64,000 nt of DNA from the NCBI GenBank assembly GCA_964416315.1, contig CAYQDR010000001.1:24639-88638 (forward strand). The letters run 5' to 3'. This document shows, piece after piece, positions 11,442 through 54,833 of this stretch. The stretch's first letter is position 1. Each line of letters opens with the position of its first letter. This stretch comes from an uncultured bacterium. GTDB lineage: Bacteria > Methylomirabilota > Methylomirabilia > Rokubacteriales > DASRDR01. The notes beneath the pieces are model-generated. The model did no database searches. It saw only the letters and a program-made list of their open reading frames with translations, and was not told the DNA's origin. The translations under genes and the position numbers were made by a program.

Positions 11442-11442
11442 G

Positions 11443-12111: not shown

Positions 12112-12194
12112 GGGCTCAGGCGGCAGGTAGGCGCTCGCCTGACGACGGGGCGCGCCCGCTGAGACCGGTCACCCTTTCGGGAAAGGAATGATCT

Positions 12195-13115: not shown

Positions 13116-13137
13116 CGGGCCGCGCCTGGGCGGAGCC

Positions 13138-13162
13138 CCCTCTCCCCCGGTGGGAGAGAGGG
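13138..13162. repeat. BoxC/REP-like palindrome (family A)
   Basis: CCCTCTCCCCCGGTGGGAGAGAGGG between convergent genes. Confidence 0.8.
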
Positions 13163-13190
13163 AAGATGTTCCGACGGGGGGAGGTGAGCC

Positions 13191-14255: not shown

Positions 14256-14314
14256 TGTCGTCCTCACTCTGGCCTGGGGTTCTCGCGCCTCGGTGAGCCC
14301 AGAGTGTACCACGC

Positions 14315-15714: not shown

Positions 15715-15726
15715 TGCGCCCTCATT

Positions 15727-22213: not shown

Positions 22214-23761
22214 CTACGCCCGCCGCATCCGGAAGTTGAAGCGCCGGACCTCGAACTGCTGGTTCGGGTTCGGGGTGAACTCGACGTGCTTCTGGAAGCC
22301 GTAGTCCTCGTAGGGCTGGATCACGACGATCCAGGGGTTGTGCTCGAGGAAGATCCGCGTCATCTTCCGGTAGGCCTCGCCGCGGAACCTCTCGTCGAGG
22401 CTGAAGCGAGCCGCGGTCCCCAGCTCGTCGAACTCCGGGTGCCGCCAGTAGTCCTGGATGCCGCCCGGCGAGAGCAGCCGCCACATCATCCCGTCCGGGT
22501 CGCGCAGCGTGGAGGTGGGGTCGGACCACCAGGTGCCCTTGAACGTCCGCTCCCGGTTCTTCTGGGCCCGGACCGAGACCTCGATGACCTCGACCACCGC
22601 GTTGAGGCCGATGTCCTTCCACATGGCGGCGATGGCCTCCGACATCGGCTTGTCGCTGGCCATGTACCCGGCGGTGGTCTCGATGTAGATGGGCTCGTTC
22701 TTGTATCCCGACTTCCGGAGCCGCTCCCTAGCCTCCTTCGGGTCGTACCGGAGCGGGGGCAGCGACTCGTCGTAGTGGTTGTCGCCCTTGGCGATCGGAC
22801 CGCTCGGGACGATCCCGCGGCCGCGCCAGAGGTCCTTCACGATCGCCTCGCGGTCCACCGCGAGCGACATCGCTTGCTTCACCAGCGGGTTGTTGAAGGG
22901 CGCGACCTTGGAGTTGACGCCCAACACGTAGAGCCCGGCGTAGAGGGCCCCCTTCGCGGAGGTCGTCGGGTGCTGGTTCACCCGGTCGTAGTGGTCGGCA
23001 GTCAGCGCGACCATGGCGTCGATCTCGCCCTTGAGGAGCGCCGCCACCCGCGCGGCGATCTCCGGGATCGAGCGGAAGACGACCCGGTCCACGTCGATCT
23101 TGCCCCCCCAGTAGTCGGAGTTCGCCTCGAGCACGGCCTTGTCGTCCTTGATCCACGAGGCGAGACGGACCGGCCCCGTGCCCACCGGCTTGGCGTTGAA
23201 CTGGTCGGGGCCGACCTGCTCCAGGTACTTCTTGGGGATCATCTGACCGCCGTAGAACGCGAGCCGCGCGGGCAGCAGCGGGTCGGGCTGCTTGGTGTGG
23301 ATCACCACGGTCTGGGGGTCCGGGGCCTCGATGCGGCCGATCGTGGTGAAGACGGTGGCCACCAGCGTCTTCGCCGCCGGGTCGTACGTCCGCTCCAGGC
23401 TGAACTTCACGTCCGCCGAGGTGAACGGATCGCCGTTGTGGAACCGGACCCCGGAGCGGAGCTTGAACTGCCACGCGGTCGGGGCGGTCGCTTTCCACTC
23501 CGTGGCCAGACCCGGGTAGAGCTTGTCGTCCGGATGCCGGCTCACGAGGTTGTCGTAGATGTTGAAGGACACGCGGATGTCGTTGGCTGCCGTCGAGTAG
23601 TGGGGGTCGAACTTCGATATGTCGCCCCCCTGGGCGACGACCAGCTCGCGCTTCTGCGTCGTCTGGGCCGAGGCCGGCCGGGCATCCGGCAGGACGGTCG
23701 CGGCCGCCGCGCCAGCGGCGAGAGTGCGGAGAAACTCACGGCGGGTCTCGGATCGCTCCAT
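22214..23761 (-). CDS. ABC solute-binding protein family 5 with Tat-type signal
   Basis: RREFLR motif; WQFKLRSGVRFHNG and PVGTGP motifs. Confidence 0.9.
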   Translation of the reverse strand: MERSETRREFLRTLAAGAAAATVLPDARPASAQTTQKRELVVAQGGDISKFDPHYSTAANDIRVSFNIYDNLVSRHPDDKLYPGLATEWKATAPTAWQFKLRSGVRFHNGDPFTSADVKFSLERTYDPAAKTLVATVFTTIGRIEAPDPQTVVIHTKQPDPLLPARLAFYGGQMIPKKYLEQVGPDQFNAKPVGTGPVRLASWIKDDKAVLEANSDYWGGKIDVDRVVFRSIPEIAARVAALLKGEIDAMVALTADHYDRVNQHPTTSAKGALYAGLYVLGVNSKVAPFNNPLVKQAMSLAVDREAIVKDLWRGRGIVPSGPIAKGDNHYDESLPPLRYDPKEARERLRKSGYKNEPIYIETTAGYMASDKPMSEAIAAMWKDIGLNAVVEVIEVSVRAQKNRERTFKGTWWSDPTSTLRDPDGMMWRLLSPGGIQDYWRHPEFDELGTAARFSLDERFRGEAYRKMTRIFLEHNPWIVVIQPYEDYGFQKHVEFTPNPNQQFEVRRFNFRMRRA

Positions 23762-23828
23762 GGCAGCCCTCCAGGTCGGGAGTGTGGGGGAGGTGGTGCG
23801 CTAACCGTAGGCCGTGACGGGCCCCCTG

Positions 23829-24944
23829 TCAAGATCGCCCGCGGGCGAGCTCCTCGCGCAGCCGGCGCGCGACGATCGTCGCCTCGTCACCGCGGAGGCA
23901 GTGCGGGTCCAGGAGGAGGTCGCCCCGGAAGACGCGGGCCATGACCGGGGGCTCGCCCGCGCGGAGGGCGTCCCTGAGCGCGGTCGCGGTCCAGCCGGTC
24001 ATCCGCTCCTCCAGGCTCACGAGCACCGTCGGGGCCGTCCAGACGGCGCGGTCCTCCTCGATCCAGACGCGGATCCCGGGGAGCCCGGTGACGGCCTCCG
24101 CGATCTGCCGGGCCTCGCCGAGGTGGCGCTCCCACTCGGCGTCGTGGTCCTCATCGAGAAACAGCTCCAGCGCCCGGACGAGCCCGACGATTTCCTCCTT
24201 GCCGACCTTGCACGGCCGGCCGATCGCCGAGTTGGGCGCCCCGTTGGCGGCGGCGGCGCGCACGAGATCCGCGCGGCCGAAGACGAAGCCGGTGTTCTGC
24301 GGGCCGCGGATCCCCTTGCCGCCGCTCACGACGACGAGGTCCGCTCCCAGGTCGATCCACCGCGTGAGGTGACGCACGGGGGGCAGCGTGGAGGCGGCGT
24401 CCACGATCAGGGGCAGGCCGTGGGCGTGGGCGATCGCCGCCATCTGCTCCGCGGGCGCGCCCTGCTCGCCCAGGCGCGGCGAGACGATGAAGACGAGGGC
24501 GGCCGTCCGATCGCCGATCGCGGCCTCGATCTCCGCGGGGGCGCACCGCTCGGCGTCCCCGACCTCGACGAGCCGCGCCCCCGCCGTGCGGAGGGCCTGG
24601 TCGTAGTGGATCCGGTTGCACCGCTGGATGACGATCTCGTTCCGCATCCCGGTCGTGTCGGGGAGCCGCCGGATCCGCTCGGGGTCGTCTCCGGCGATGC
24701 ACGCCGCCGCGGCCAGGAGGAGCCCGCCGGCCGAGCCCGACGTGACGTGCGCCGCCTCGACGCCGATGAGCCGGGCGATGCGCTCTCCGGCCCGGGCGTG
24801 GAGCTCGAGCATGTCCACGAAGGCCGTGGCCGCCTCGGTCATCGCCTCCAGGACGGGCTTCGGCATGATGGAGCCGCCCGCCAGCGTGTTCATGCCGCAC
24901 GCGTTGATGACCGGCCGGACCCCGAGCCGCGCGTAGGCCTCCAT
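23829..24944 (-). CDS. SelA-like PLP-dependent enzyme (DgaE-type ammonia-lyase family)
   Basis: RPVINACGMNTLAGGS, VDAAS and SGGKGIRGPQ motifs; 371 aa. Confidence 0.8.
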   Translation of the reverse strand: MEAYARLGVRPVINACGMNTLAGGSIMPKPVLEAMTEAATAFVDMLELHARAGERIARLIGVEAAHVTSGSAGGLLLAAAACIAGDDPERIRRLPDTTGMRNEIVIQRCNRIHYDQALRTAGARLVEVGDAERCAPAEIEAAIGDRTAALVFIVSPRLGEQGAPAEQMAAIAHAHGLPLIVDAASTLPPVRHLTRWIDLGADLVVVSGGKGIRGPQNTGFVFGRADLVRAAAANGAPNSAIGRPCKVGKEEIVGLVRALELFLDEDHDAEWERHLGEARQIAEAVTGLPGIRVWIEEDRAVWTAPTVLVSLEERMTGWTATALRDALRAGEPPVMARVFRGDLLLDPHCLRGDEATIVARRLREELARGRS

Positions 24945-25020
24945 GGCGCCTCCTGTCCGGCAGCCTGTCGGAGTAACAGGCTGAATGCTCTCGCGCTCCT
25001 GACAGGTCGCCCACCACTGC

Positions 25021-25100
25021 CGGTTCCACTTCGAGCGCGGGCTTTGCCCGCGCAAGTTCCTTGGGGGGGAGGTCCGGAAGGGGGGCGTAGCCCCCCTCCG
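25021..25100 (+). repeat. Two-hairpin repeat family C, copy 2
   Basis: GCGCGGGC-TTT-GCCCGCGC then GGGGAGGT then CGGAAGGGGGGC-GTA-GCCCCCCTCCG. Confidence 0.8.
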
Positions 25101-25238
25101 GGTTCCCTAGACTGTAGCACGGCGCGCGAATCCGTCTTGTGGCCGCTGGCCTTGGCCCCCATAATTGGAGTGGTTGCGAGGGCACGCTCGGCAACGCGGA
25201 GCATCCCGGCGGAGACCCGCCGCGGAGGAGGGCGCGAG

Positions 25239-32240: not shown

Positions 32241-32301
32241 AGGGCCGTCGGGCCCGTAGCGGCCCGGCCTCGAGGGACGGGCAACCCCAGGGAGGAGGCA
32301 T

Positions 32302-34185
32302 ATGGCATCGGGCGTCACGGCTCGGCTCCTGCACGTCGATCTTACGACGCGTGAGACCCGCGTTGAAGAGCTTCCAGAGACGGTGGTCAGGAAGCACCTG
32401 GGAGGGGGGGCGCTGGCCTGCTACCTCCTGCTCCGCGACCTCCCGCCGGGGGTGGACCCGCTGGGGCCCGAGAACATCCTCGTCTTCACGACGAGCGTGA
32501 TCAACGGGCTCTCCCTGTCGGGGACCAACCGGTACACGGCCGCGGCGAAGTCGCCGCTGACCGAGGCGTACGGGGAGTCGGAGGCGGGCGGCTGGTGGGG
32601 CCCCGAGCTGCGCGCCGCCGGCTACGACGGGCTCGCGATCCGCGGCCGGGCGGAGTCCCCCGTCTACCTCTGGATCAAGGACGGGCAGGTGGAGTTCCGG
32701 GACGCGCGCCCGTACTGGGGGCAGCTCTCGGGCGAGGTGCAGGACGGGCTCCAGCAGGAGCTGGGGGACAAGCGGATCCGCGTGCTGCAGACCGGCCTCG
32801 CCGGGGAGCGCGGCGTGCGCTTCGCCGCGATCGTCAACCAGCTCAAGCACTTCCACGGGCGCTGCGGGCTCGGCGCGGTGATGGGCGCCAAGCAGCTCAA
32901 GGCGATCGTCGTGCGGGGGGCGAAGCCGCCCGCTGCCATGGACAAGGACGGCGCGCGGGGGGCGCTGACCTGGTTCCGCGAGCACTACGACCGCTCGAAG
33001 GACCGCTTCCACGTGCTCGGCACGGCCAGCGCCGTGCTGGCGCTCGAGGCGGGCGGGATCCTGCCGACGCGGAACTTCCGCGACGGCTCGTTCGAGCACG
33101 CGAAGGCCATCAGCGGCCAGACGATGGCGGAGACGATCCTCGTGAACCGCGGCACCTGCTTCGCGTGTGCCGTCGCCTGCAAGCGCGAGGTGGCGGTCCC
33201 CGAGGACGGGGTCACGCCGAAGTACGGCGGCCCCGAGTACGAGACGCTGGCGGCGAGCGGGTCCCTCTGCGGGGTCGGCGACCTGCGGGCGCTGGCCCGG
33301 GTGAACCAGCTCCTCGCGCAGTACGTCCTCGACTCCATCTCGACCGGGGTGACGATCGCGTTCGCGATGGAGTGCTACGAGCACGGCATCATCACGAAGG
33401 CCGACACCGGCGGGATCGAGCTCACCTGGGGGAACGCCGAGGCCGTCGAGCAGATGGTCCACCTGATCGGCCGGCGCGAGGGGATCGGCCGGCTCCTCGG
33501 CGAGGGCGTCAAGCGCGCCGCCGCTCAGCTCGGGCGGGGCGCCGAGCGCTTCGCCCTCCACGTCAAGGGGCAGGAGCTGCCCATGCACGACCCGCGGGGG
33601 AAGAAGGCGCTCTCGCTCGCCTATGCCATCTCCCCGACCGGCGCCGACCACATGGAGGCGCCGCACGACCCCCTCTACGAGGGCTTCCACCCCCAGGGCC
33701 ATCCGCTCGGGCCGCTCGGGCTCATCGAGCCGGTCAAGATGCTCGACTTTGGGCCGAAGAAGGTGCGGGCGTTCTTCCTCTGCCAGCAGGTCTGGAGCCT
33801 CTACAACTCGGTCGGGATGTGCGACTTCGTCGGCACCCCGCTGAACGCGCTCGAGCTGGAGAAGCTCGTGGGCTACGTCAACAGCGTCACCGGCTGGAAC
33901 ATGAGCCTCTTCGAGATGCTCAAGATCGGCGAGCGGGGGAACACGCTGATGCGCGTGTTCAACTGCCGCGAGGGGTTCACGCCGGCCGACGACGTCCTCC
34001 CGCAGCGGATGCACGAGGGGATCGGCAACGGCGCGCTGAAGGGCGAGCGCGTGGACCCGGACCAGTTCGTCGCGGCGCGGCGCCTCTACTACGAGATGGC
34101 CGGCTGGGACCCCGACACGGGCCGGCCGACGGCCGCGAAGCTGGCCGAGCTGGCGGTGGACGAGGCGGCGATCCGCACCGCCTGA
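32302..34185 (+). CDS. Aldehyde:ferredoxin oxidoreductase family (W/Mo-pterin) protein
   Basis: KSPLT...ESEAGG, GRCGLGAVMGAKQLKAI, CFACAVAC, PEYETL and LDSISTG motifs. Confidence 0.9.
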   Translation: MASGVTARLLHVDLTTRETRVEELPETVVRKHLGGGALACYLLLRDLPPGVDPLGPENILVFTTSVINGLSLSGTNRYTAAAKSPLTEAYGESEAGGWWGPELRAAGYDGLAIRGRAESPVYLWIKDGQVEFRDARPYWGQLSGEVQDGLQQELGDKRIRVLQTGLAGERGVRFAAIVNQLKHFHGRCGLGAVMGAKQLKAIVVRGAKPPAAMDKDGARGALTWFREHYDRSKDRFHVLGTASAVLALEAGGILPTRNFRDGSFEHAKAISGQTMAETILVNRGTCFACAVACKREVAVPEDGVTPKYGGPEYETLAASGSLCGVGDLRALARVNQLLAQYVLDSISTGVTIAFAMECYEHGIITKADTGGIELTWGNAEAVEQMVHLIGRREGIGRLLGEGVKRAAAQLGRGAERFALHVKGQELPMHDPRGKKALSLAYAISPTGADHMEAPHDPLYEGFHPQGHPLGPLGLIEPVKMLDFGPKKVRAFFLCQQVWSLYNSVGMCDFVGTPLNALELEKLVGYVNSVTGWNMSLFEMLKIGERGNTLMRVFNCREGFTPADDVLPQRMHEGIGNGALKGERVDPDQFVAARRLYYEMAGWDPDTGRPTAAKLAELAVDEAAIRTA

Positions 34186-34217
34186 GACCGATCGCGTCCT
34201 GAGCGGGTAGGCCTGCC

Positions 34218-35621
34218 ATGGCGAAGACGCTCCTCGACAAGGTGTGGGAGGCCCACACCGTCCGCGCGCTCCCGTCGGGGCAGACGCAGCTCCTGATCGG
34301 ACTCCACCTCATCCACGAGGTGACGAGCCCGCAGGCCTTCCAGATGCTGCGCGAGATGGGCCTGCGGGTGCGCATGCCGGCGCGCACCTTCGCCACGGTG
34401 GACCACATCGTCCCGACCGCCTCCCAGCAGCGCCCCTTCGGCGACGCCGTGGCGGAGGAGATGACGGTCCACCTGGTCCGGGGCTGCCAGGAGTTCGGGA
34501 TCCCGCTCTTCGACCTCGACAGCGGCCGCCAGGGGATCGTCCACGTCATCGGCCCCGAGCTCGGGCTCACGCAGCCGGGGATGACGATTGCCTGCGGCGA
34601 CAGCCACACCTCGACCCACGGCGCCGTCGGCGCCATCGCCTTCGGGATCGGGACGACCCAGGTGCGTGACGTCCTTGCAACCCAGTGCCTCCTGATGGCG
34701 AAACCGAAGCTCCGCCAGATCCGGGTCGAGGGGAAGCTCACCCGCGGCGTCTACGCGAAGGACGTCATCCTGGCGATCATCCAGCGGCTCGGCGTCAAGG
34801 GCGGCGTCGGGTACGCGTACGAGTACGCCGGCTCGACGCTCGAGGCGATGACGATGGAGGAGCGCCTCACGGTCTGCAACATGTCCATCGAGGGCGGGGC
34901 GCGGTGCGGCTACGTCAACCCGGACCAGACCACGGTCGACTACCTCCGCGGCCGGCCGTACGCGCCCCAGGGCACGGCGTTCGACCGGGCGGTCGTCTGG
35001 TGGCGGAGCATGGCGACGGACCTGGACGCGCGCTTCGACGACGTGGTCCGGCTCGAGGCCGACCGGATCCAGCCGGTCGTGACGTGGGGGATCAACCCGG
35101 GACAGTCGGTCGGGGTGGAGGAGCGCATCCCCGAGCCCGCGTCGGCCCCGGAGTCCGAGCGGGCGACCTGGCGCGAGGCGCTCGGCTTCATGGACTTCAA
35201 GGCCGGCCAGGCGATCGCGGGGACGAAAATCGACGTCGCCTTCATCGGCTCGTGCACGAACGCGCGCCTCTCCGATCTCCGGGCGGCGGCGGAGGTCGCG
35301 CGGGGGCGGCAGGTGGCGAAGGGCGTCCGGGCCCTCGTGGTCCCGGGCTCCCAGGCCGTGGCGAAGGCGGCGGAGGCCGAGGGCCTGCACGAGATCTTCC
35401 GGGCGGCGGGGTTCGAGTGGCGGAAGGCCGGCTGCTCGATGTGCCTCGGGATGAACGAGGACAAGCTCCGCGGGCGGGAGGTCTGCGCCTCGTCGTCGAA
35501 CCGGAACTTCATCGGCCGGCAGGGGAGCCCGACGGGGCGGACGCTCCTGATGAGCCCGGCGATGGTGGCGGCGGCGGCGATCGCGGGGGCGGTCGCCGAC
35601 GTGCGGGCGATGCTGCGGTGA
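34218..35621 (+). CDS. leuC: 3-isopropylmalate dehydratase large subunit
   Basis: [39 protein letters not shown] and NRNFIGRQG motifs. Confidence 0.95.
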
Positions 35622-42504: not shown

Positions 42505-42651
42505 ATGCCGCACTACCTGAGCGACGACGAGTTGAGGCGAGTGGCCCCCGCGGAGCTCGCGACCTTCAAGGGGCCGGTCCCGACCCAGATCGTCTCGAAC
42601 GGCGAGTTCAACCCGCCGCCCCAGACCCGCGAGCAGCGAATGCTTGAGTGA
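42505..42651 (+). pseudogene. N-terminal stub of an amidohydrolase-family protein
   Basis: GAAGGAGGT RBS; MPHYLSDDELRRVAPAEL...PTQIVSNGEFNPPPQTREQR then early stop; not in the ORF track. Confidence 0.55.
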
Positions 42652-42860
42652 AACGCTCGACTTGTCAATCCCCGGGCGTATGCAATCGGATACACCCGGG
42701 GTCGCAGCATGGGACTGTGACTGGAATCCTCGCGTGGTGTGTCCGACCCACGAGCCGTTCGGTCTCCTTCTCGTTTCGCCGAGCGTGCGGGCGGTGCCGC
42801 TCACGCATCGGAAGCTCCGTCGGCCCCCCAGCTTGCGCGCCGCGGTCGGGTGTGGTAGCC

Positions 42861-43718
42861 GTGTCGGGAGCGATCCGCCCCGCTCCAGGTACACCGTTGA
42901 AGGTCACGCTCCTCGGGACCGGCTGTCCGCCACCGAACCCGCGGCGCCGCGGGCCGGCGACGTTGTGTGCCCATGACGCGGCGCGGGTCCTCGTGGACGC
43001 GGGCTCGGGGGTGGCGGCGCGGCTGGCCGAGGCCGGGGTCCGCGCGGTGGACCTCGAGCGGGCGTTCCTGACCCACCTCCATTCCGATCATGTCGTCGAT
43101 CTCGGGCATCTCGTCCTCAGCCGCTGGATCATCGGCCAGAACCGCCCGCTCGAGGTCTATGGCCCGGCCGGCACGCGCGCCCACGTCGAGAGGGTCCTCG
43201 CGCTCTGGGAGTGGGACGTCGAGGTCCGGCGGTCCCACATGCACGACCGCGAGCCGCCCCGGGTCGAAGTCACGGAGATCGAGGAGGGTCGCGTGTTCTC
43301 GGGTGGCGGGCTGACGGTCACCGCCTTCGCCGTCGAGCACGAGCCCGTCAAGCCGGCCTTTGGCTTCGTCGTCGAGGGTGGTGGCCGGCGGGTCGTGATC
43401 TCGGGGGACACGCGCCCGTGCGAGAACCTGATCCGCCACGCCCGCAGCGCGGACGTGCTGATCCACGAGTGCACGGACGCGACCAAGGCGGCCTGGTCGC
43501 CGGGCTGCGGCTGGCCGTCCCGCGAGGCGAAGGTCCGTGACCTCGCGAGCTACCACACGGGGCCGGACGAGGTCGGCAAGGTGGCCGCGCGGGCGACCGC
43601 CGCAACGCTGATCCTCACACACCTGATGCCCGGCTCCGACCCCGCCGACCTGTCGGCCCGCGCCGCGCGGGACTTCTCCGGGAAGATCGTCGTCGGCGAA
43701 GACCTCATGGAAGTGTGA
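42861..43718 (+). CDS. MBL-fold hydrolase (RNase Z/AtsA-like)
   Basis: VTLLGTG, VLVDAGSG, THLHSDH, ISGDT, LIHE and LTHL motifs; start uncertain (GTG 42861 or TTG 42897). Confidence 0.85.
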   Translation: MSGAIRPAPGTPLKVTLLGTGCPPPNPRRRGPATLCAHDAARVLVDAGSGVAARLAEAGVRAVDLERAFLTHLHSDHVVDLGHLVLSRWIIGQNRPLEVYGPAGTRAHVERVLALWEWDVEVRRSHMHDREPPRVEVTEIEEGRVFSGGGLTVTAFAVEHEPVKPAFGFVVEGGGRRVVISGDTRPCENLIRHARSADVLIHECTDATKAAWSPGCGWPSREAKVRDLASYHTGPDEVGKVAARATAATLILTHLMPGSDPADLSARAARDFSGKIVVGEDLMEV

Positions 43719-43737: not shown

Positions 43738-44730
43738 ATGGCGCTGATCGATGTCCACAACCACATCCTCTCGAAGGCCTGGGTGGACCTCCTGGCGGCA
43801 TACGGCGGCCAGCGGTACCAGATCGGCAAGGATTCCGAGGGCCGGACGATCGTCCTCCGCAAGGGCGCGCGGTTCCTCGGCCTGACCGACGCGATGTTCG
43901 ACCCGGAGATGCGGCTGAAGGCCATGGACGCGGTCGGCGTCGAGCTCGAGCTGCTCTCCTACACCTGCCCGAACTGCTACTGGGCCGACGGGAAGGCGGC
44001 GGAGACGGTCGTCCGGGCGATGAACGACCACCTGGCGGAGGTCTGCGCGCGGTGGCCGGACCGGTTCCGGGGGCTCGGGAGCCTCCCGATGCAGGACGTG
44101 GACCTCGCGTTGAAGGAGCTGGAGCGGGCGGTGGACCAGCTCGGGATGGTCGGATTCATCATCCTGGCGAACGTGAACGAGACGCCGCTCGACGACCCGC
44201 GCTTCGAGCCGGTCTGGGCGGCGCTCAACGCCCGCCGGCTGCCGGTCCTGCTCCACCCGACCGTGCCGCCCGGCGTCGAGGCGATGGGCATGGACCGCTT
44301 CGGCCTCGTCCCCTCGATCGGGTTCATGATCGACACGACGCTCGCCGTCACGCGCATGGTCCTCGCCGGCGTCTTCGAGCGCTACCCCGACTGGCCGGTG
44401 ATCGTGGGCCACGCGGGCGCGACGCTGCCCTTCCTCGCCGGCCGGCTCGACCAGTGCCACCGCTTCATCCCCGAGACGCGCGCGCAGACCTCGAAGCCGC
44501 CTTCGGAGTACCTCAGGCGGCTCTACTACGACACGGTCACGTACGACGTGAACGCGCTCTGGCTCGCCTACAAGCTCGCGGGGCCCCAGCGGCTGCTCTA
44601 CGGGAGCGACTACCCGCACATCATCGGGGACATGAAGGGGTGCGCGGCGCGGATCGAGCAGCTCGAGATCCCGGAGTCGGAGAAGGCGCTGATCCGGTCG
44701 GGGAACGCGAAGCGGCTGTTCCGGCTGTAG
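43738..44730 (+). CDS. Amidohydrolase_2 family protein (ACMSD/decarboxylase-like)
   Basis: IDVHNH, LLHP, GHAG, YYDT and YGSDYP motifs. Confidence 0.9.
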
Positions 44731-44852: not shown

Positions 44853-45728
44853 ATGATCCCAGCCGCGTTCGACTATCACGCCCCGTCGTCGCTCGCCGAG
44901 GCCACCGCCCTCCTCGCGCGTCACGGAGAGGACGCGAAGGTCCTCTCGGGCGGGCAGAGCCTCATCCCGATGATGAAGCTCCGCCTCGCCAGCCCGCGGC
45001 ACCTCGTGGACATCAACCGCATCCCGGGGCTCGCCTACATCCGCGAAGCCGACGGAAGCTTGCGGATCGGCGCCCTCGCCCGCGAGGCGGACCTGGAGGA
45101 GTCGGATCTCGTCCGCACCCGCTATCCGATCCTCCTCGACGCCAGCCGGGTGATCGCCGACCCGCTGGTCCGAAACCTGGCGACCGTCTGCGGCAACCTG
45201 GCCCACGGGGATCCGGCCAACGACCATCCGGCCGCCATGCTCGCCCTCGGCGCCGAGCTGGTCGCGACGGGCCCGAAGGGGGAGCGGCGCATCGCGGTCG
45301 GCTCGTTCTTCACCGGGCCCTTCGCCACGACCCTCGCGCGGGACGAGATCCTCACGGAGGTCCGCGTCCCGGCGCCGCCGCCGCGGAGCGGCGGGGCGTA
45401 CCTGAAGCTCGAGCGCAAGGTCGGGGACTTCGCGACGGCCGCCGTCGCGGTCCAGGTGACGCTCGGCCTGGGCGGCGAGTGCGAGCGGGTCGGGATCGGT
45501 CTCACGAACGTGGGGCCGACCCCGATCGCGGCCCGGAAGGCCGAGGCGTTCCTCAAGGGGAAGCGGCCGGACGAGGCGGCGGTGAAACAAGCGGCGCAGC
45601 TCGCGGCCGAGGAGGCCCGCCCGGCGGCGGACCTCCGCGGACCGACCGAGTACAAGCGCGATCTCGTCCGGGTGTTGACGGCGCGCGCGCTCCGGAAGGC
45701 GCTCGAGCGCGCGCGCGGGGGGAGGTGA
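44853..45728 (+). CDS. coxM: CO dehydrogenase medium (FAD) subunit
   Basis: [39 protein letters not shown] motifs. Confidence 0.9.
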
Positions 45729-45733
45729 GGGCC

Positions 45734-46207
45734 GTGCGCGTCGGGGTGACCGTCAACGGCGAGAAGCGCGAGGCCGACGTGGAGCCCCGGCTCCTCCTGG
45801 TGCACCTCCTCCGGGAGGTGTTCCGGCTGACCGGGACGCACATCGGCTGCGACACGACCCACTGCGGCGCGTGCACCGTCCTCCTCGAGGGGAGGCCTGT
45901 CAAGTCGTGCACGGTCTTCGCCGTCCAGGCCGACGGGAAGGAGCTGATGACCGTCGAGGGGCTCGAGCAGGACGGGAAGCTGCACCCGCTCCAGGAGGGG
46001 TTCTGGCAGGAGCACGGCCTCCAGTGCGGCTACTGCACCCCGGGGATGCTCATGACCGGCTACGCGTTCCTCCGGAAGCATCCGAAGCCGACGGAGGACG
46101 AGATCCGGTGGGCGATCTCCGGCAACCTCTGCCGGTGCACCGGCTACGTGAACATCGTCAAGGCCGTGCAGTACGCGGCCGCGAAGCTGTCGCAGGGAGG
46201 AGCATGA
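45734..46207 (+). CDS. coxS: CO dehydrogenase small (2Fe-2S) subunit
   Basis: [19 protein letters not shown] and NLCRCTGY motifs. Confidence 0.9.
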
Positions 46208-48573
46208 TGGCCCCCAGGACGCCGCCCGAGATCGGAGGGATGGGGCACTCCATCAAGCGCAAGGAGGACGCGCGCTTCATCCGGGGGAAGGGGACGTACG
46301 TGGACGACGTCCAGCTCCCCGGGATGCTCTACCTCGACATCGTCCGGAGCCCCTTCGCCCACGCGAGGCTCAAGAAGATCGACGCCTCGAAGGCCCTGAC
46401 GATCCCCGGGGTGCTGGCCGTCATCACGGGTGAGGACCTGGCGAAGTACAACCTCCACTGGATGCCGACCCTGATGTCGGATACCCAGATGGTCCTGCCC
46501 GTGGAGAAGGTGATGTACCAGGCGCAGGAGGTCGCGGCCGTCCTCGCCACCGAGCGCTACATCGCGGCGGACGGGGTGGAGGCCGTGGAGGTCGAGTACG
46601 AGCCGCTCCCTGTCGTCGTGGACCCGCGGAAGGCACTCGAGCCCGGGGCGCCCGTCTTGAGGTCCGACAAGAAGGACCGGAAGGACAACCACATCTGGCA
46701 CTGGGAGTGGGGCGACCGGGCCGCCACCGACCGCGCCTTCCAGGAGGCGGGGGTGACGGTCAAGCAGGACATCTACCTCCCGCGGATCCACGTCGCCTCC
46801 ATCGAGACCTGCGGCTGCGTCGCCCACTTCGACAAGGTCAATGGCAAGCTGACGGTGTGGATGACCACGCAGGCGCCGCACGCGATCCGGACGGTCTTCG
46901 CGCTGGTCGCCGGGCACGTGGGCCTGGAGGAGCACAAGATCCGGATCATCTCGCCGGACATCGGCGGCGGCTTCGGCGGCAAGGTGCCGGTCTATCCCGG
47001 CTACGTCATCGCCGTGGCCGCGTCCGTCCTGACGGGTAAGCCGGTCAAGTGGATCGAGGACCGGATGGAGAACCTCCAGGCCGACTCCTTCGCGCGCGAC
47101 TACCACATCACGGCGGAGCTGGCGGCGACGAAGGAGGGGCGGCTCACGGCGTTGCGGATCAAGACGATCGCGGACCACGGGTACGCCGACGCGGCGGCCA
47201 ACCCCTCGAAGTTCCCCGCGGGCCTTTTCCACATCTGCACGGGCTCCTACGACTTCAAGGCCGCCCACGTCGAAGTGGACGGGGTGTACACGAACAAGCC
47301 CCCGGGCGGCATCGCCTATCGCTGCTCCTTCCGCGTGACGGAGGCCGTCCACACGATCGAGCGGATGGCGGACCTCATGGCCCACCAGCTCGGGATGGAT
47401 CCGGCGGAGTTCCGGCTGAAGAACTTCATCAAGCCGGAGCAGTTCCCGTATCGCTCGGCCCTCGGGTGGGAGTACGACAGCGGCAACTACGCCGCCGCCC
47501 TTCACAAGGCGATGGAGAAGATCGGCTACGCCGAGCTGCGGCGGGAGCAGGCGGAGAAGCGGAAGCGCGGGGAGCTGATGGGGATCGGCATCTCGAGCTT
47601 CACCGAGATCGTCGGAGCCGGTCCCTCGAAGCACTTCGACATCCTCGGCCTCAAGATGTTCGACAGCTGCGAGATGCGGATCCACCCGACGGGGAAGGCC
47701 ATCGCCCGCTTCGGGACGCGGTCGCAGGGGCAGGGGCACGAGACCACCTACGCCCAGATCCTCGCCGAGGAGCTGGGGATCCCCGCCGCCGACATCCAGG
47801 TCGAGGAGGGCGACACGGACACCGCCCCCTACGGGCTCGGGACCTACGCGAGCCGCTCCACGCCCGTCGCCGGCGCGGCCGCGGCCATGGCGGCCCGGAA
47901 GATCCGCGACAAGGCGCGGAAGATCGCCGCGCACCTGCTCGAGGCCGCCGAGGAGGACCTCGTCTGGGAGCCCGGGAAGTTCTCCGTGAAGGGCGCGCCG
48001 AGCCGCTCCAAGACGATCCAGGAGATCGCGTTCGCCGCCTACACGAACCATCCGCAGGGGATGGAGGCCGGACTCGAGGCGGTCTCGTATTACGACCCGC
48101 CGAACCTGACCTTCCCCTTCGGGAGCTACATCGCGGTGGTGGACATCGACACGGGCACCGGGGAGGTCAGGGTCCGGCGCTTCGTGGCGGTGGACGACTG
48201 CGGCAACATCATCAACCCGATGATCGTCGAGGGGCAGATCCACGGCGGGCTCACCATGGGGCTTGCCCCCGCGCTGTACGAGGAGATCTCGTACGACGAG
48301 TCGGGGAACATCCGGGGCGGGAGCTTCATGGACTATCTCCTTCCCACGGCGGTCGAGACGCCCCGCTGGGAGACCGACAAGACGTGCACCCCGTCCCCCC
48401 ACCACCCGCTCGGCGCCAAGGGCGTCGGCGAGTCCGCCACCGTCGGTGCCCCGGCGGCCATCGCGAACGCCGTCGTGGATGCCCTCTGGCACCTCGGCGT
48501 GCGCCACGTGGACATCCCGATCACCCCGGCGAAGGTGTGGAAGCTCCTCCGGGATCACGGGGTGACGGAGTAG
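46204..48573 (+). CDS. coxL: CO dehydrogenase large subunit, form I
   Basis: Active-site AYRCSFR at 47314-47334; coxMSL gene order. Confidence 0.92.
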
Positions 48574-48604
48574 GAAAACCTTCCGCCAGCGCAAGGAGGA
48601 GGCG

Positions 48605-48901
48605 ATGCTCTTCTCGGTACCGTTCTCCCACACGGCCGCAGAGTGCCCCGCGGCCCACAAGGAGCAGATGGACGGGATCACGCGCTTGCTGTCACCGGAA
48701 AGCCTCGGCCCGCGCGGAATCCGGCTCGTCGAAGGGTACGTCGACCGGCTCTGACTGCAGCCCACGGAGAAGGGTCACTTCTCCTATTTCGTCTTCGAGG
48801 CCGACGCCGAGCAGAAGATCCGCGACCTGTTTAAGCCCGCCCAGGTCGAGCTGCGGACGCTCGAGCGGTGGAGTGACATGATGAAGGCGGCGCCGAGGTA
48901 G
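48605..48901 (+). CDS. Putative 98-aa selenoprotein (UGA at codon 50), small alpha/beta protein of unknown function
   Basis: AAGGAGGAGG RBS; single in-frame TGA 48752-48754; frame continues to TAG 48899-48901 and fills the coxL-coxG gap; SECIS-like hairpin follows. Confidence 0.7.
48766..48784 (+). promoter_or_regulatory. Candidate bacterial SECIS element
   Basis: GGAGAAG-GGTCA-CTTCTCC, a perfect 7-bp stem starting 11 nt after the TGA. Confidence 0.65.
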
Positions 48902-48928
48902 CCGCGGGCCCGCCCGTGTGAGGCACCG

Positions 48929-49510
48929 ATGGCCGTGAAGATGGAGCAGAAGGTGTCGCTCGGCGCGCCGCCGGACCGCGTGTGGGCGTTCCTGACCGAC
49001 CCCTTCCAGGTGGCGAGCTGCCTGCCCGGCGCCGCGATCACCGAGCAGGTGGACGACCGCACCTACCGCGGCACGATCACGGTGAAGGTGGGTCCCATGA
49101 CCACGAGCTACAAGGGAACGATCCGGTTCGAGCGACTGGACCCCGGCGCCCGGGAGGCGGAGCTGGTGGGCCAGGGCCAGGACGTGCGGGGCAAGGGCGG
49201 CGCCGAGATGCGGATGCAGAGCCGCCTCCGGGCGGTGGAGGGAGGGACCGAGGTCACGGTCGTCTCGGAGGTGAGCATCACCGGGCTCCTCGCCCAGCTC
49301 GGTCGCGGCATGATCGAGGGTGTGGCGGATCAGATCTTCCAGGAGTTCGCCGCGGCGATGCGCCAGAAGCTGGGCGCGGGGCCCGCGGGCGGAGAGGCGG
49401 CGGCGGAGGCCAAGCCGCTGGATGCGCTCTCGCTCGGCACGAAAGCCGCCGGGCAGGCGGTGGGGCGCGCCGTGCGCCGCCTCCTCGGCCGCGAGGGCGA
49501 GCCGCCGTGA
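48929..49510 (+). CDS. coxG: CoxG / SRPBCC family protein
   Basis: VWAFLTDPFQVASCLPGA, VKVGP and LAQLGRGMI motifs. Confidence 0.85.
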   Translation: MAVKMEQKVSLGAPPDRVWAFLTDPFQVASCLPGAAITEQVDDRTYRGTITVKVGPMTTSYKGTIRFERLDPGAREAELVGQGQDVRGKGGAEMRMQSRLRAVEGGTEVTVVSEVSITGLLAQLGRGMIEGVADQIFQEFAAAMRQKLGAGPAGGEAAAEAKPLDALSLGTKAAGQAVGRAVRRLLGREGEPP

Positions 49511-50484
49511 CGCTCGACCTCCTGGCCCTCGGGCTGGAGCTCGCCCGACGGGGCGAGCCCTTCGCCCTGGCCACCGTGGTCCGGTGCGAGCGCCCGGCCT
49601 CGGCGCGGCCCGGCGCCCGGGCCCTGATCCGCGAGGACGGGACCGTGTCCGGCTGGATCGGCGGGAGCTGCGCCGAGCCGCTCGTCGTGAAGGAGGCGCT
49701 CGACGCGCTGCGCGACGGGGAGCCGCGGCTGATCGCCCTGGTCGGCGAGGGCGCCGGCGGTTCGGCGGGGCGGGAAGGGGTGCGGTGGCACGCCATGCCC
49801 TGCCACAGCGGGGGGACCCTCGAGATCTACGTCGAGCCGGTGCTCCCGAAGCCGCAGATCGTACTGGTCGGAAGCGGGCCGGTCGTGGAGACGCTGGCCC
49901 GGCTCGCGGCGGCGCTCGCCTACGCGGTGGTCGTCGTGGAGCGGGAGCCCGCGGGCAAACCGTTCCTCGCGGGGGAGACGGTCGTCGACGGCCTGGCGCG
50001 CGTGCCCGCCGCGCCCCGGAGCTTCGTCGTGGTGGCCACCCACGGGCGCTTCGACGAGGACGCGCTCGAGCAGGCGCTCCAGCGCGACGCGGCTTACGTG
50101 AGCCTGGTCGCCAGCCCTCGGCGCGCGGCGGCCGTGGTGGAGACGCTGCGCGCGCGCGGCGTCACGGAGGACCGGCTGCGGCGGCTCAAGTCGCCGGCCG
50201 GGCTCGACCTGGGCGCGGTGACGCCGGAGGAGATCGCCGTCAGTATCCTGGCGGAGATCGTCCGTGTGCGGCGGAGCGCGGAGCCCGGTCCCCGGTCCGA
50301 CGCGCCCCCGGCACCGTCCACGGTCCCCGAGGCTCGCGACCCGGTCTGCGGGATGACCGTGGAGGTCGCCCGGGCGCGCGCCACCTCGGAGGCCGGCGGC
50401 CGGTCGTTCTACTTCTGCTGCGCCGGCTGCAAAGAGCGATTCGACCGCGACCCGGCCGCCTACGCGCCGGGCCTCCAGGCCTGA
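49507..50484 (+). CDS. XdhC/CoxF family Moco-insertion protein fused to a C-terminal YHS domain
   Basis: GWIGGSC, PCHSGG, VVATHG and SPAGLDLGA...EIAVSILAE motifs; DPVCGM...YFCCAGC at the C-terminus. Confidence 0.85.
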   Translation: MTLDLLALGLELARRGEPFALATVVRCERPASARPGARALIREDGTVSGWIGGSCAEPLVVKEALDALRDGEPRLIALVGEGAGGSAGREGVRWHAMPCHSGGTLEIYVEPVLPKPQIVLVGSGPVVETLARLAAALAYAVVVVEREPAGKPFLAGETVVDGLARVPAAPRSFVVVATHGRFDEDALEQALQRDAAYVSLVASPRRAAAVVETLRARGVTEDRLRRLKSPAGLDLGAVTPEEIAVSILAEIVRVRRSAEPGPRSDAPPAPSTVPEARDPVCGMTVEVARARATSEAGGRSFYFCCAGCKERFDRDPAAYAPGLQA

Positions 50485-52158: not shown

Positions 52159-52227
52159 ACGCTGCTCCTTTCGGGACTCTGCGGGCCCCGATGCAGCATA
52201 CTAGAATCGGTCGAGAGGGCAAGTCGC

Positions 52228-53289
52228 ATGAAGCTCAGCCGCCGGAGCCTCCTGACGCTGGCCGGCCTCGCCGCGCTCGGCGTGACCGTGCCGGCGTGCC
52301 GCCAGATGCTCTGGCAGATCCTCTTCTCGCCCGACGCAAGCCCCGTCCCACCGCCGCCCGCCGCCGGCAACCCGTTCCGCGCCGGAGAGCGGAGCCTCGT
52401 CGCGCTCGTCCACGGCGGCGACCCGGCGAGCATGGTGCGCCGCGCGCTCGAGCTCCTCGGCGGCCTCGAGCGGCTCGACCTCCGGGGCCAGCCCGTGCTG
52501 GTCAAGCCGAACGCGGTCTCGGGCGAGGGGCCGCCCGCGACCACCGACCCCCGCGTCGTCCGCGCGGTGCTCGACCTCGCCCGCGAGGCCGGCGCCGCGT
52601 CGCTCGCCGTCGGCGACATGTCGGCCGTGCTCGCGCTTCCGACGCGGCCCAACCTCGAGCGCACCGGGCTGGCGCGGGTGGCCGAGGAGGCCGGCGCCGC
52701 GCTGCACGCCTTCGAGGAGGGCGACTGGGTCGAGGTGCGTCCCCCGAAAGCCGAGCTGGCGACGGCGGTGTACGTGGCGAAGGCCGCTTACGAGGCGCCG
52801 CGCTTGATCAGCGTCCCCGTGATCAAGACGCACCGGAGCGCCACCTTCAGCTGCGCTCTGAAGAACACGGTCGGTTGCGTCCACGGGAAGAACAAGCCGT
52901 GGGCCTACGGCGGCGCGGGCTGGGAGCCGTCCGTCGCCGAGCTGAACCTGGCCGTCCGCCCGTACCTCTACGTGGTGGACGGCCTCCGAAGCATGGTCGC
53001 GGGCGGCCCGTGGTCCGGGGAGGCGGCGGCGACGGACCTCGTCCTCGCGAGCGGGGACCCGGTGGCGCTGGACGCGGTGGCGCTTGGGCTCTTGAGGCAC
53101 CTCGGCCGCTCGGAGCTGGTCCTCGCCAAGCCCGTCTGGGAGCAGGGCCAGCTCCGTCGCGCCGTCCAGCTCGGCCTCGGCGCTCGCGGGCCGGCCGAGG
53201 TCGAGCTGGTCGCCGAGCACCTCGGCCGCGACGCGGCGGGGTTCCGTCGCCTCGTGGACGGCATCCGCCGCGAGGCCGGCCTCACCTGA
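52228..53289 (+). CDS. DUF362 domain protein with Tat-like signal
   Basis: SRRSLL; VLVKPN, PVIKTH and LKNTVG motifs. Confidence 0.8.
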   Translation: MKLSRRSLLTLAGLAALGVTVPACRQMLWQILFSPDASPVPPPPAAGNPFRAGERSLVALVHGGDPASMVRRALELLGGLERLDLRGQPVLVKPNAVSGEGPPATTDPRVVRAVLDLAREAGAASLAVGDMSAVLALPTRPNLERTGLARVAEEAGAALHAFEEGDWVEVRPPKAELATAVYVAKAAYEAPRLISVPVIKTHRSATFSCALKNTVGCVHGKNKPWAYGGAGWEPSVAELNLAVRPYLYVVDGLRSMVAGGPWSGEAAATDLVLASGDPVALDAVALGLLRHLGRSELVLAKPVWEQGQLRRAVQLGLGARGPAEVELVAEHLGRDAAGFRRLVDGIRREAGLT

Positions 53290-53343
53290 CGCTTCCCCGC
53301 GCTGCGCGGGTTTCCGTGCTCGGGCTCTTACTCCGTGAAGGAA

Positions 53344-53556
53344 CGATACAGCGTGCACGATGACGATACCGATTCGAAACGCCGAGATGGGCTGCTGGAA
53401 CTCGATGCCGCGATCCATTGTGATGAAGACATCGTAGTGGCCACTCATGCGGTGCAGGAGCTCGCTGTTCCTGATGCCAGCCCACCCGCGGCCGATCACG
53501 GTGTCGACATCGTGGCCGGCGAGTTCTCGGGCGAGGTCTACGGGTAGGTGCTCGTC
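53344..53556 (-). pseudogene. Internal fragment of a DUF5615 PIN-like toxin
   Basis: DEHLPVDLARELAGHDVDTV...GWAGIRNSELL...VFITMDRGIEFQQ; lacks start and C-terminus. Confidence 0.7.
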
Positions 53557-53557
53557 G

Positions 53558-53719
53558 TCAGTTCGAGCACCACACGACCACCTCGACCGGACCGTCGGGG
53601 CCGTGCCACGTGGCGCGGGGGAAGCCCCCGCAGTGCCGCTCGAGGTCGGCGAAGACGCGGTAGCGGCCCTCGCGCTTCAGGCGGCCGATGGCGTCCGCGA
53701 AGACCTGGTCGTACTCCAT
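53558..53719 (-). pseudogene. hemA: N-terminal stub of 5-aminolevulinate synthase (ALAS)
   Basis: MEYDQVFADAIGRLKREGRYRVFADLER...VVVWCSN then stop where DYLGM is expected; AAAGGA RBS. Confidence 0.75.
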
Positions 53720-53858
53720 GGTGGGTTCCTTTCGCCCCGTCGGGGTCGGCTCGCCGCGGGTCCGCGTGGCGGGGATCGAAGAGGCCCTTGCTGGCGAGTG
53801 TAGCAAACTTCGCGTCGGCCGTCCCGCCGCGCGCGCTCCGCGACCTCGAGCCCGCGCG

Positions 53859-54833
53859 TCAGCCTCGGGCGGGCTCCAGGTACCGGGTCGGGATCTCGGC
53901 GCCCGCCGCGAAGCTCAGCTTTCCGAGCCGGCACATCTGGTAGACGTTGACGCGGAAGTCGGGGCAGGTGCTCACCAGGCAGTAGGCGTCGGTCGGCGTG
54001 AAGCCGTAGTCGGTGACCAGCCAGTCCATCAGGTTGACGGTGGCCGTTTCCACCGCGACCTCGAGCGGCCGGTAGGCGAAGACCGAGACGATCGACGCCG
54101 GCTTCTCGATGCGCATCCAGGGGATCCGCGTGCCCTTGCGGAGGTCGAGCCGGAGCCGCACCGTCGCCGTCGTCTCGGCCGCGGTGCCGGTGAACTCGGT
54201 GTCACCCTGGCTCGCGTGGACGTCTCCGAGGTAGAAGAGCGCCCCGGGGTGGAAGATCGGGAGCCAGATGCGGTGTCCGGGGGCCACGTCGCGGATGTCG
54301 AGGTTCCCGCCCCACTCCCCCTGGCCGTCGAGGCTCGTCGTCACCTCGCGGTCGGGCGCCACGCCGAGGCACCCGATGAACGGGGTGATCGGCCACGACA
54401 GACGCGCGTCGAAGTGGAGCGTGCCGTCGCGGGTCGTGCCGCTCGGCCCGTGAGTGTGACGGAAGATCCGGGTCGTATAGTGGTGGGACAGCTCCGGCCA
54501 GCGCGTCGAGCCACCGAGGGGACCGCGCCCCGGGCCGATGGCGATCCAGGAGTAGTCGCCGACCACGATCTCCTCGATCGTCACGAGCAGCGCGTCGCCG
54601 CGCTCGGCGCCCTCCAGCCACACCGGGCCCGCGATCGGGTTGGCCAGCGGCGGCACCCGATCGAATCCCGGGCGCCGGGCGGGGATGGCGAGGTCCTCGG
54701 ACGATGTGAAGTACCCGGTGCTCGCATCCCAGGTCTCGACCTCGAATGGCTCGCCGGGCTGGACGCGGAGCAGCGGCGCGTCGCGCCAGTCGAAGGCATA
54801 CTTGCGGGCGTCTTCGCGGACAATGCGCTGCAC
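53859..54833 (-). CDS. Acetamidase/formamidase family protein
   Basis: NPIAGPVWLEGAERGD, WGGNLDI and GDVHASQGDTE motifs. Confidence 0.9.
   Translation of the reverse strand: MQRIVREDARKYAFDWRDAPLLRVQPGEPFEVETWDASTGYFTSSEDLAIPARRPGFDRVPPLANPIAGPVWLEGAERGDALLVTIEEIVVGDYSWIAIGPGRGPLGGSTRWPELSHHYTTRIFRHTHGPSGTTRDGTLHFDARLSWPITPFIGCLGVAPDREVTTSLDGQGEWGGNLDIRDVAPGHRIWLPIFHPGALFYLGDVHASQGDTEFTGTAAETTATVRLRLDLRKGTRIPWMRIEKPASIVSVFAYRPLEVAVETATVNLMDWLVTDYGFTPTDAYCLVSTCPDFRVNVYQMCRLGKLSFAAGAEIPTRYLEPARG

Follow-up and report, generated by a model that had tools for sequence, protein, structure and literature searches.

In bacterial selenocysteine (Sec) decoding, the Sec insertion sequence (SECIS) binds SelB, the Sec-specific elongation factor that carries Sec-tRNA(Sec). 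The minimal SECIS of Escherichia coli fdhF, the gene for formate dehydrogenase, has its upper stem-loop 11 nucleotides (nt) after the UGA, and its G23 and U24 are contacts of SelB (PMC8659212). The published model of the bacterial SECIS (bSECIS) describes a loop of 3 to 9 nt, a stem of 4 to 16 base pairs (bp) and a G in the first two loop positions (PMC13188914, Fig. 2), together with a UGA-to-loop distance of 16 to 37 nt and a minimum free energy (MFE) of −7.5 kcal/mol or lower (PMC13188914). The small selenoproteins catalogued so far, such as DUF3179 proteins with a UxxC motif, GOS_B/GOS_C and HesB-like proteins (PMC13188914, Table 1), are short, have a single Sec aligned with Cys and were predicted purely by comparative genomics. 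Here, we describe a candidate of the same kind in a 64,000-nt stretch of DNA from an uncultured Rokubacteriales bacterium (this whole stretch is called the window hereafter). Judged from comparative sequence analysis, positions 48605–48901 (+) very probably constitute one intact gene for a 98-residue selenoprotein, in which UGA codon 50 is decoded as Sec. The case draws its significance from the comparison of homologues, in which both the TGA and the hairpin recur and Cys counterparts exist, rather than from a single sequence.

The gene lies between coxL and coxG of an operon for aerobic carbon monoxide dehydrogenase (CODH). The coxL stop codon (TAG, 48571–48573) is followed by a gap of 31 nt and then by ATG 48605; within the gap, the Shine-Dalgarno-like sequence AAGGAGGAGG (48593–48602, +), read directly from the DNA, has its first GGAGG core ending 5 nt upstream of this ATG. 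The frame of 98 codons, Met1 to Arg98, ends at TAG 48899–48901, 27 nt upstream of the coxG ATG at 48929, and its translation is 64–88% identical to full-length homologues. Its sole in-frame TGA, the putative Sec codon 50 (48752–48754, +), aligns with the invariant Cys of the Cys-type homologues. Beyond the TGA come 11 nt (48755–48765) and a putative SECIS-type hairpin, GGAGAAG-GGUCA-CUUCUCC (48766–48784, +), which is composed of the arms GGAGAAG (48766–48772) and CTTCTCC (48778–48784) around the loop GGTCA (48773–48777). The original prediction, made from these letters alone, had described the ribosome-binding site, start, TGA, hairpin, stop and both intergenic gaps, and all of them were found to be present to the base.

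TGA is the usual stop codon in the window, where it ends 26 of 32 genes. The TGA at 48752–48754 is the only in-frame TGA of the window with a coding signal on both flanks, and a search of the 64 kb for further selenoprotein candidates with an in-frame TGA found none. A public protein collection holds the product of this locus only as a 49-amino acid open reading frame (ORF), in line with the prediction that the gene would be hidden. The identical 49-amino acid ORF occurs on three contigs from several archives, and three more 49-amino acid members of its cluster end at the same point. Thus, the TGA is not a private read error. Public annotation hides the gene, which gene callers cut in half.

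With the read-through protein as the query, we identified five full-length proteins of 98–101 amino acids (P0001–P0005), which are 65–74% identical and have Cys at codon 50 (..YVDRLCL..), along with several fragments that either stop exactly at ..YVDRL or start just beyond it. The DNA of the homologues was represented by 39 loci taken from public contigs, species-representative genomes and metagenomes. Among 185,579 species representatives, four genomes matched, all of them metagenome-assembled genomes (MAGs) of Rokubacteria (Candidatus Rokuibacteriota). Codon 50 was called by a script that finds the motif VEGYVD[RKQ]L and reads the codon that follows. The codon was TGA in 22 distinct genes, which come from Rokubacteria MAGs and from soil and groundwater metagenomes, and TGC, encoding Cys, in five loci (L008, L009, L011, L028 and L029); no third codon was seen. 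With P0003–P0005 added to these loci, six or more homologues have TGC. In a neighbor-joining tree built without the hairpin codons, the Cys forms occupy two positions: L008 stands alone, and L009, L011 and L028 form a clade whose sister, L024, has TGA. Therefore, at least two exchanges between Sec and Cys have taken place.

The frame runs on past each TGA as LxP[TS]EKGHFSYF[VIL][FL]EA... and ends at about residue 95–98. Across codons 51–89 of 15 intact Sec-type genes, we counted 919 synonymous versus 1101 nonsynonymous differences in frame, mainly at third codon positions, as compared to 318:1823 and 121:1957 in the two shifted frames; the upstream half gave a similar ratio, 1387:1528, in frame. 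These counts show that the region 3′ of the TGA is translated in frame and under purifying selection. Codon 50 and the selection on both of its sides thereby came out as the original prediction of Sec at this position had anticipated, and together with the hairpin they support it at the level of sequence. Other copies of the gene look degenerate. L001–L006 (for instance, L001 1557–1823) have an A·C mismatch in the SECIS stem and a shortened C terminus, L002 and L030/L031 carry frameshifts, and L007 (2762–2935) has an internal deletion that joins codon 12 to about codon 53. In addition, L012, L034 and L035 are N-terminally truncated copies that retain both the TGA and the hairpin.

The hairpin spans 19 nt, with a perfect 7-bp stem and a 5-nt loop that begins 18 nt after the UGA. 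RNA folding returned it as both the MFE and the centroid structure, at −10.0 kcal/mol alone and −11.4 kcal/mol in context. Its loop of 5 nt, stem of 7 bp, GG loop start, distance of 18 nt and energy of −10.0 kcal/mol all lie within the published bSECIS model, and the variant with an A-U closing pair folds at −7.5 kcal/mol. Counted from the U of the UGA, the loop reads G22 G23 U24 C25 A26, which places G23 and U24 at the fdhF numbering and GGUC where the fdhF loop presumably has the same four bases. The 11-nt spacing, to which the original prediction had drawn attention, is identical to the spacing in E. coli (PMC8659212). The two elements differ in that the window hairpin is a perfect 7-bp stem with no extended lower stem predicted around the UGA, and the window protein is unrelated to formate dehydrogenase. 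As an estimate of the chance rate, 10 of 577 TGA triplets (about 2%) in this 72%-GC window are followed at SECIS distance by a 7-bp hairpin that is perfectly paired and has G at the first two positions of its loop; judged as a single sequence, the window hairpin is thus only mildly unusual. An Rfam scan of 48500–49000 at E ≤ 10 gave only chance matches on the opposite strand.

The comparison of Sec forms provided further evidence for an RNA-level function. The consensus structure of 17 distinct 63-nt Sec-form segments consists of this hairpin alone, with pairing in 99.2% of cells. At the closing pair, 7 of these segments have G-C and 10 have A-U (8 and 14, respectively, among the 22 distinct Sec genes); coupled silent substitutions in a Lys codon (AAG/AAA) and a His codon (CAC/CAT) account for the switch, with zero G·U or A·C intermediates and at least two independent occurrences on the tree. 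Several synonymous sites are invariant in the Sec-form hairpin, namely, the third position of codon 54 (ACG/TCG54), GAG55, GGT57, TTC59 and TCC60. In a 16-gene subset, four of six hairpin codons were invariant as compared to 5 of 60 codons outside the hairpin (Fisher p = 0.002). All 22 Sec forms encode Gly57 by GGT, while GGT accounts for only 2 of the 71 other Gly codons of these genes. Four of the five Cys loci drop hairpin features, with AGGCA or GCUCA loops and stems that contain G·U pairs or mismatches. The fifth, L009, retains an intact hairpin, as expected after a recent Sec-to-Cys switch. Together, these sequence patterns indicate an RNA-level constraint on the hairpin across Sec forms, and the hairpin most probably acts as a SECIS, not merely as coding sequence.

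The genes around the candidate form a genuine form I cox operon, as originally predicted. coxM, encoding the FAD-binding medium subunit (44853–45728, +; Pfam FAD_binding_5 and CO_deh_flav_C), is followed by coxS, encoding the [2Fe-2S] small subunit (45725–46207, +; Pfam Fer2_2 and Fer2), and by coxL, encoding the form I aerobic CODH large subunit (46204–48573, +). The assignment is based on the AYXCSFR loop of coxL (here AYRCSFR), on a TIGR02416 score of 1269 bits, well above the equivalog cutoff of 991, and on the adjacent coxM and coxS. Downstream of the candidate gene lie coxG (48929–49510, +), of the SRPBCC-fold CoxG family (Pfam COXG, E = 4e-21), and an xdhC/coxI-type gene for a molybdenum cofactor (Moco) maturation factor with a C-terminal YHS/TRASH domain (49507–50484, +; Pfam XdhC_CoxI, XdhC_C and YHS; NCBIfam XdhC), followed by a convergent gene for a thiamine pyrophosphate enzyme. 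The YHS/TRASH motif of this XdhC reads CGMTV...YFCCAGC. Directly upstream of coxM are genes for a metallo-β-lactamase (MBL)-fold hydrolase (42648–43718, +) and an amidohydrolase_2 protein (43738–44730, +).

In xanthine dehydrogenase systems, Moco is sulfurated while bound to the chaperone XdhC, and the CoxD/E/F route of CODH maturation is known from Oligotropha. We know of no Cox accessory protein that is a selenoprotein, and none is listed in the 119-family selenoprotein catalogue (PMC13188914). Like the genes for Cox accessory proteins (CoxD/E/F/G/I and XdhC), the window gene is situated inside a coxMSL-...-coxG-xdhC cluster; however, its product has no sequence similarity to any of them, and the XdhC encoded here bears a YHS domain. 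The conserved Cys/Sec and His residues of the product would suit the handling of S or Cu. The XdhC-YHS fusion (CGMxV...YFCCxGC) might link the handling of Moco to the delivery of copper in form I CODH. The cluster shows none of the maturation genes coxD, coxE and coxF, and a scan of about 60 window ORFs found no MoxR-AAA (CoxD) or VWA (CoxE) protein; the lack of a CoxD/CoxE-like gene in this set may leave room for a different maturation route.

The linkage to coxL, which the original prediction had named as a test, recurs elsewhere. The order coxL(AYRCSFR)-gene-(coxG)-xdhC-YHS is present in the window and in L014, both with Sec, and in L008, L009 and L011, which have Cys; gene-xdhC-YHS is found in L028 and L029. 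The xdhC-YHS fusion 3′ of the family gene was located at 3473–4456 in L008, 10349–11329 in L011 and 506–1483 in L028, and it also occurs in L029. In L024 (1100–1332), only the last approximately 80 XdhC residues, which comprise the YHS domain, remain after the Sec gene, an M24 peptidase gene occupies the place of coxL, and a gene for a 1-Cys peroxiredoxin follows. It seems that a cox cluster has been deleted here around the selenoprotein gene.

The remaining Sec members have different neighbors, including genes for the DUF3179 selenoprotein, LigD/DUF72, DinB, MBL and MFS proteins, cupin, 1-Cys peroxiredoxin, pyridine-nucleotide disulfide oxidoreductase, rhodanese and PDZ/phosphodiesterase proteins. 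Neighbors that recur in the wider family of Cys-type proteins are rhodanese, TusA/GCV_H, rhodanese-MBL fusions, CMD/AhpD-like and SCO4226-like proteins, and these neighborhoods are also rich in peroxiredoxin and DinB genes. Thiol/persulfide and redox chemistry is a recurring theme of these surroundings. MBL genes flank family members in L020, L021, L030, L044 and L045. The cox linkage holds in the window's clade only, and the family is not an obligate cox accessory; the notion that it is dedicated to the cox system did not stand, as most Sec members are found in unrelated neighborhoods.

It is accordingly a serious possibility, falling somewhat short of an even chance, that the gene encodes a real selenoprotein with a general redox or metal function unrelated to CODH and that its cox position is a lineage-specific accident. 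This would agree with the majority of Sec-type members, which lie beside LigD/DUF72, DinB, MBL and MFS, cupin, DUF3179 or PDZ/phosphodiesterase genes, and with the archaeal and other relatives, which are without cox neighbors. An accident would, however, have to account for a coxL-gene-xdhC-YHS order that is kept in one clade at 64–88% identity and across Sec-to-Cys switches. The 31- and 27-nt spacing, together with stop and start codons that overlap at other junctions of the operon, suggests that the gene is cotranslated with coxL, coxG and xdhC, and L024 has retained the gene beside a YHS remnant after the loss of coxL.

In GTDB, Rokubacteria belong to the phylum Methylomirabilota. One MAG of this phylum is cited in PMC13188914 for its 63 predicted selenoprotein genes, and Sec-type [NiFeSe] hydrogenases have been reported from the phylum (PMC13582414). 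Among our loci, four contigs (L013, L016, L017 and L018) carry, convergent to the family gene, a DUF3179 gene with an in-frame TGA within W-U-P-L-C, a UxxC motif. These genes are located at 866–1825 (−) in L018 and at 608–1549 (−) in L017, and the TGA is at 1130 in L016 and at 830 in L013, a named Rokuibacteriota MAG. In the DUF3179 gene, the in-frame TGA is followed 14 nt later by the hairpin GGGCAU-CGUGU-AUGCCC. The selenoprotein catalogue lists DUF3179 with UxxC as one of its families (PMC13188914, Table 1). The two genes thus appear, from their sequences, to be a conserved pair of selenoprotein genes on four contigs. Because a gene of a known selenoprotein family adjoins family members in this way, there is good indirect evidence that the organisms carrying the family gene decode Sec.

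The same data bear on the identity of the inserted residue. Recoding by SECIS and SelB might insert Cys through a tRNA-ReC/SelC*-type tRNA, or near-cognate read-through might insert Trp or Cys, and the product would then be full-length and selenium-free. UGA-to-Cys tRNAs that work via the Sec pathway have been described, with Sec-rich MAGs among the cases under discussion (PMC13582414), the protein tolerates Cys functionally at codon 50, and the inserted residue cannot be told from sequence alone. Nevertheless, a costly UGA with its SECIS would not be expected to persist across many lineages in which TGC is one mutation away, the neighboring DUF3179 UxxC gene belongs to a catalogued selenoprotein family, and the phylum is reported to be Sec-rich. 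We consider a selenium-free product highly unlikely.

Next to codon usage and RNA structure, the protein itself provides information on codon 50. The window protein has zero matches in Pfam (E ≤ 1) and in NCBIfam release 20.0, and the homologue P0002 likewise matches neither. We searched 1.8 billion representatives with a profile and then ran a second, word-indexed search; together, these revealed a wider family of about 45 clusters of hypothetical proteins of 95–124 amino acids, one of them from a Nitrososphaeraceae MAG. Two longer proteins, P0011 (3212 amino acids) and P0031 (331 amino acids), were rejected as members; they are repetitive, and their short VEKGHF.SF.F-like and YVDRPC-like repeat matches are apparently spurious. 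A profile search of PDB sequences was likewise discarded, as all of its matches were spurious ones to prion protein at E > 0.1. Alignments of 18 and 45 sequences, in which identity falls to about 20%, have just seven invariant columns: H9, C14, P15, D47, C50, H58 and P78. Because the window TGA aligns with C50, it stands at one of the few positions that never vary in the family. Sec50, Cys14, His9 and His58 of the site originally proposed are therefore borne out as invariant, while His18 is not conserved, and the conserved Asp47 and Pro15 had not been listed.

The Cys homologue P0001 was modeled with AlphaFold2 from the 45-sequence alignment (pLDDT 90.1, pTM 0.78). The model runs from β1 (2–9) through two helices to β2 (40–46) and a short helix (48–51) that carries residue 50, and then through β3 (58–65), a helix and β4 to a final helix. 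The predicted fold is ferredoxin-like, β-α-β-β-α-β. By its topology, H9, C14, P15, D47, residue 50 and H58, which are all of the invariant residues except P78, would lie at one end of the sheet: at the end of β1, in the loop after β1, in the loop after β2 and at the start of β3. A Foldseek search of PDB returned no match at E ≤ 0.001 and only generic ferredoxin-like structures at E ≥ 0.01, the weak matches being the NikR Ni domain, the YciI-like HI0828, the Ni-binding SCO4226 and ribosomal protein S6.

A DUF3303-like fold, which had been suggested from the sequence, was supported in part. The AlphaFold2 model is ferredoxin-like, and a relative in L039, whose homology to the family was established with hhalign (97.5% probability, E = 7e-12), reaches 21.9 bits on DUF3303 (PF11746), just above the cutoff of 21.2. 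In contrast, 0 of 45 family members match DUF3303 directly, and the window protein shows no match at E ≤ 1. The DUF3303, SCO4226-like (PF14026) and YciI-like families share with the window family a length of about 95 amino acids and a predicted β-α-β-β-α-β fold, and SCO4226-like genes (PF14026) are neighbors of wider-family genes. The window family differs from them by an extra loop of about eight residues between β2 and β3 that carries the Cys or Sec and that the L039 protein lacks. The family is thus a remote relative of DUF3303 with a Cys/Sec loop insertion, not a DUF3303 member.

The model also bears on whether the UGA could be a true stop, in which case the 49-residue N-terminal peptide would be functional, perhaps with a separate C-terminal ORF, and the hairpin would be a by-product of the peptide sequence or a translation attenuator. 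TGA does end 26 of 32 window genes, the hairpin encodes conserved residues, and L009 keeps it with a Cys codon. On the other hand, the downstream ORF has no start codon or ribosome-binding site, with an in-frame Leu as the first codon after the TGA and no ATG or GTG nearby, and the Cys homologues are single chains of 98 amino acids. Moreover, the modeled sheet needs both halves, β1 and β2 before codon 50 and β3 and β4 after it, and the invariant site spans them, with H9 and C14 before and H58 after codon 50. We regard a functional stop as extremely improbable. A nonsense pseudogene, in which a TGC-to-TGA mutation or a sequencing error would have left a Cys gene with no full-length product, might be suggested by the single base between the two codons, the decaying copies elsewhere (L002, L030/31, L007 and L012/L034/L035) and public gene calls that end at 49 amino acids, yet it keeps hardly any probability and is ruled out at the sequence level because the same TGA is conserved in 22 distinct sequences across the whole tree and the codons 3′ of it are under the same in-frame purifying selection as those 5′ of it, with the identical 49-amino acid call on three contigs from several archives and with synonymous hairpin sites frozen in the TGA forms only.

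Some observations count against reading UGA50 as Sec. None of selA, selB, selC and selD was found in the 64-kb window, which is without any tRNA, and a search for tRNA-Sec found none in the window or in the 39 loci. Taken as a single sequence, the 66-nt region folds no better than its shuffles (z = −0.49). The covariation is limited to one base pair, in sequences that are phylogenetically related. Because the hairpin lies inside the conserved peptide TEKGHFS and L009 keeps it, its conservation is partly at the protein level or a fossil of a recent Sec-to-Cys switch. Finally, the bulged U17 of E. coli fdhF has no counterpart in the window stem, where position 17 is an A paired with U31.

The predicted selenoprotein differs in several respects from the catalogued small ones. 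Its fold is predicted to be ferredoxin-like, not thioredoxin-like, and its Sec stands outside a UxxC/CxxU motif, with the partner Cys 36 residues away. The family is absent from the 119-family catalogue of May 2026 (PMC13188914, Table 1), in which we found no comparable entry. Our literature searches on DUF3303, selenoprotein with XdhC, selenoprotein with coxL and Rokubacteria with selenocysteine retrieved nothing on this protein; the work of Deng et al. 2026, on the Methylomirabilota MAG with 63 selenoproteins, was outside the comparison. What is new here is a probable selenoprotein family that is absent from the catalogue, Pfam and NCBIfam, while the bacterial mechanism of Sec decoding is already known.

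Elsewhere in the window, a gene for a pyridoxal phosphate enzyme with a Pfam SelA match (23832–25106, −) was considered as selA and rejected. Its selA score of 71.7 bits is below the cutoff of 267.9, and it belongs to the DgaE family, a SelA-related ammonia-lyase (TIGR01437, 235.8 bits); it adjoins a gene for a family 5 solute-binding protein (22217–23800, −). An OsmC-like gene (15289–15726, −) is without an in-frame TGA, OsmC-like proteins being a catalogued selenoprotein family. An aldehyde:ferredoxin oxidoreductase gene of the tungsten/molybdenum type (AFOR_N/AFOR_C; 32260–34185, +), which adjoins an aconitase-family gene (34203–35621, +), shares the window with the aerobic CODH. Four stretches (7054–8637, 11441–12200, 13100–14300 and 52200–53860) contain no ORF with a Pfam match or a clear frame of high GC content at third codon positions (GC3). 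The impression that the window is marked by many scars was not upheld, as the suspected gene-free stretches turned out to be mostly ordinary genes of lower GC3, with no unusual breakage among the stretches checked.

Returning to the preferred reading, in which UGA50 is decoded as Sec, we propose the following course of events. The ribosome would not stop at codon 50; following established Sec decoding, the hairpin 11 nt 3′ of the UGA would bind SelB with Sec-tRNA(Sec), which would be delivered to the UGA. Rokubacteria would have replaced the Cys of the β2-β3 loop by Sec, and in the window's clade the gene would have become fixed between form I coxL and (coxG-)xdhC-YHS. The Cys14/Sec50 pair may take up or hand on persulfide sulfur or may form a selenenylsulfide. 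In the cox operon, the protein would serve the XdhC-dependent sulfuration of Moco and the assembly of the Mo-S-Cu site.

On present sequence comparisons, the most likely function, put forward tentatively, is that of a thiol/selenol redox or sulfur-relay protein acting through Cys14 and Sec50, which in the cox operon would serve Mo-S-Cu assembly. A metal site of the His2-Cys-Sec(-Asp) type, for example, for Cu(I) or Ni, is a rather unlikely second choice. A role in CODH maturation is predicted with some doubt and is perhaps a one-in-a-few possibility. These functional proposals have to be set against the facts that most Sec members lie away from cox genes, that the structural matches are generic (E ≥ 0.01) and that the grouping of the invariant residues at one end of the sheet is a deduction from fold topology; we also know of no characterized homologue.

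It is quite unlikely, but worth stating, that the Sec protein could be a dedicated chalcogen or copper relay that, together with XdhC-YHS, builds the Mo-S-Cu (or even a Mo-Se-Cu) site and replaces the CoxD/E/F route. If true, this would mean a selenium-dependent maturation pathway for aerobic CODH. A Sec set into an invariant His/Cys/Asp/His cluster on a ferredoxin-like scaffold may represent a new use of Sec, either in sulfur relay or as a metal ligand. The compact, well-constrained candidate SECIS, with its fdhF-like GGUC loop in register, may help studies of SelB specificity in an uncultured, Sec-rich phylum. Last, in one clade the gene is placed between the catalytic subunit of an enzyme that oxidizes atmospheric CO and a Moco chaperone-YHS fusion. 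This makes it a concrete candidate, open to testing, for a part in Mo-S-Cu site assembly, a process that is poorly understood in organisms without clustered coxDEF.

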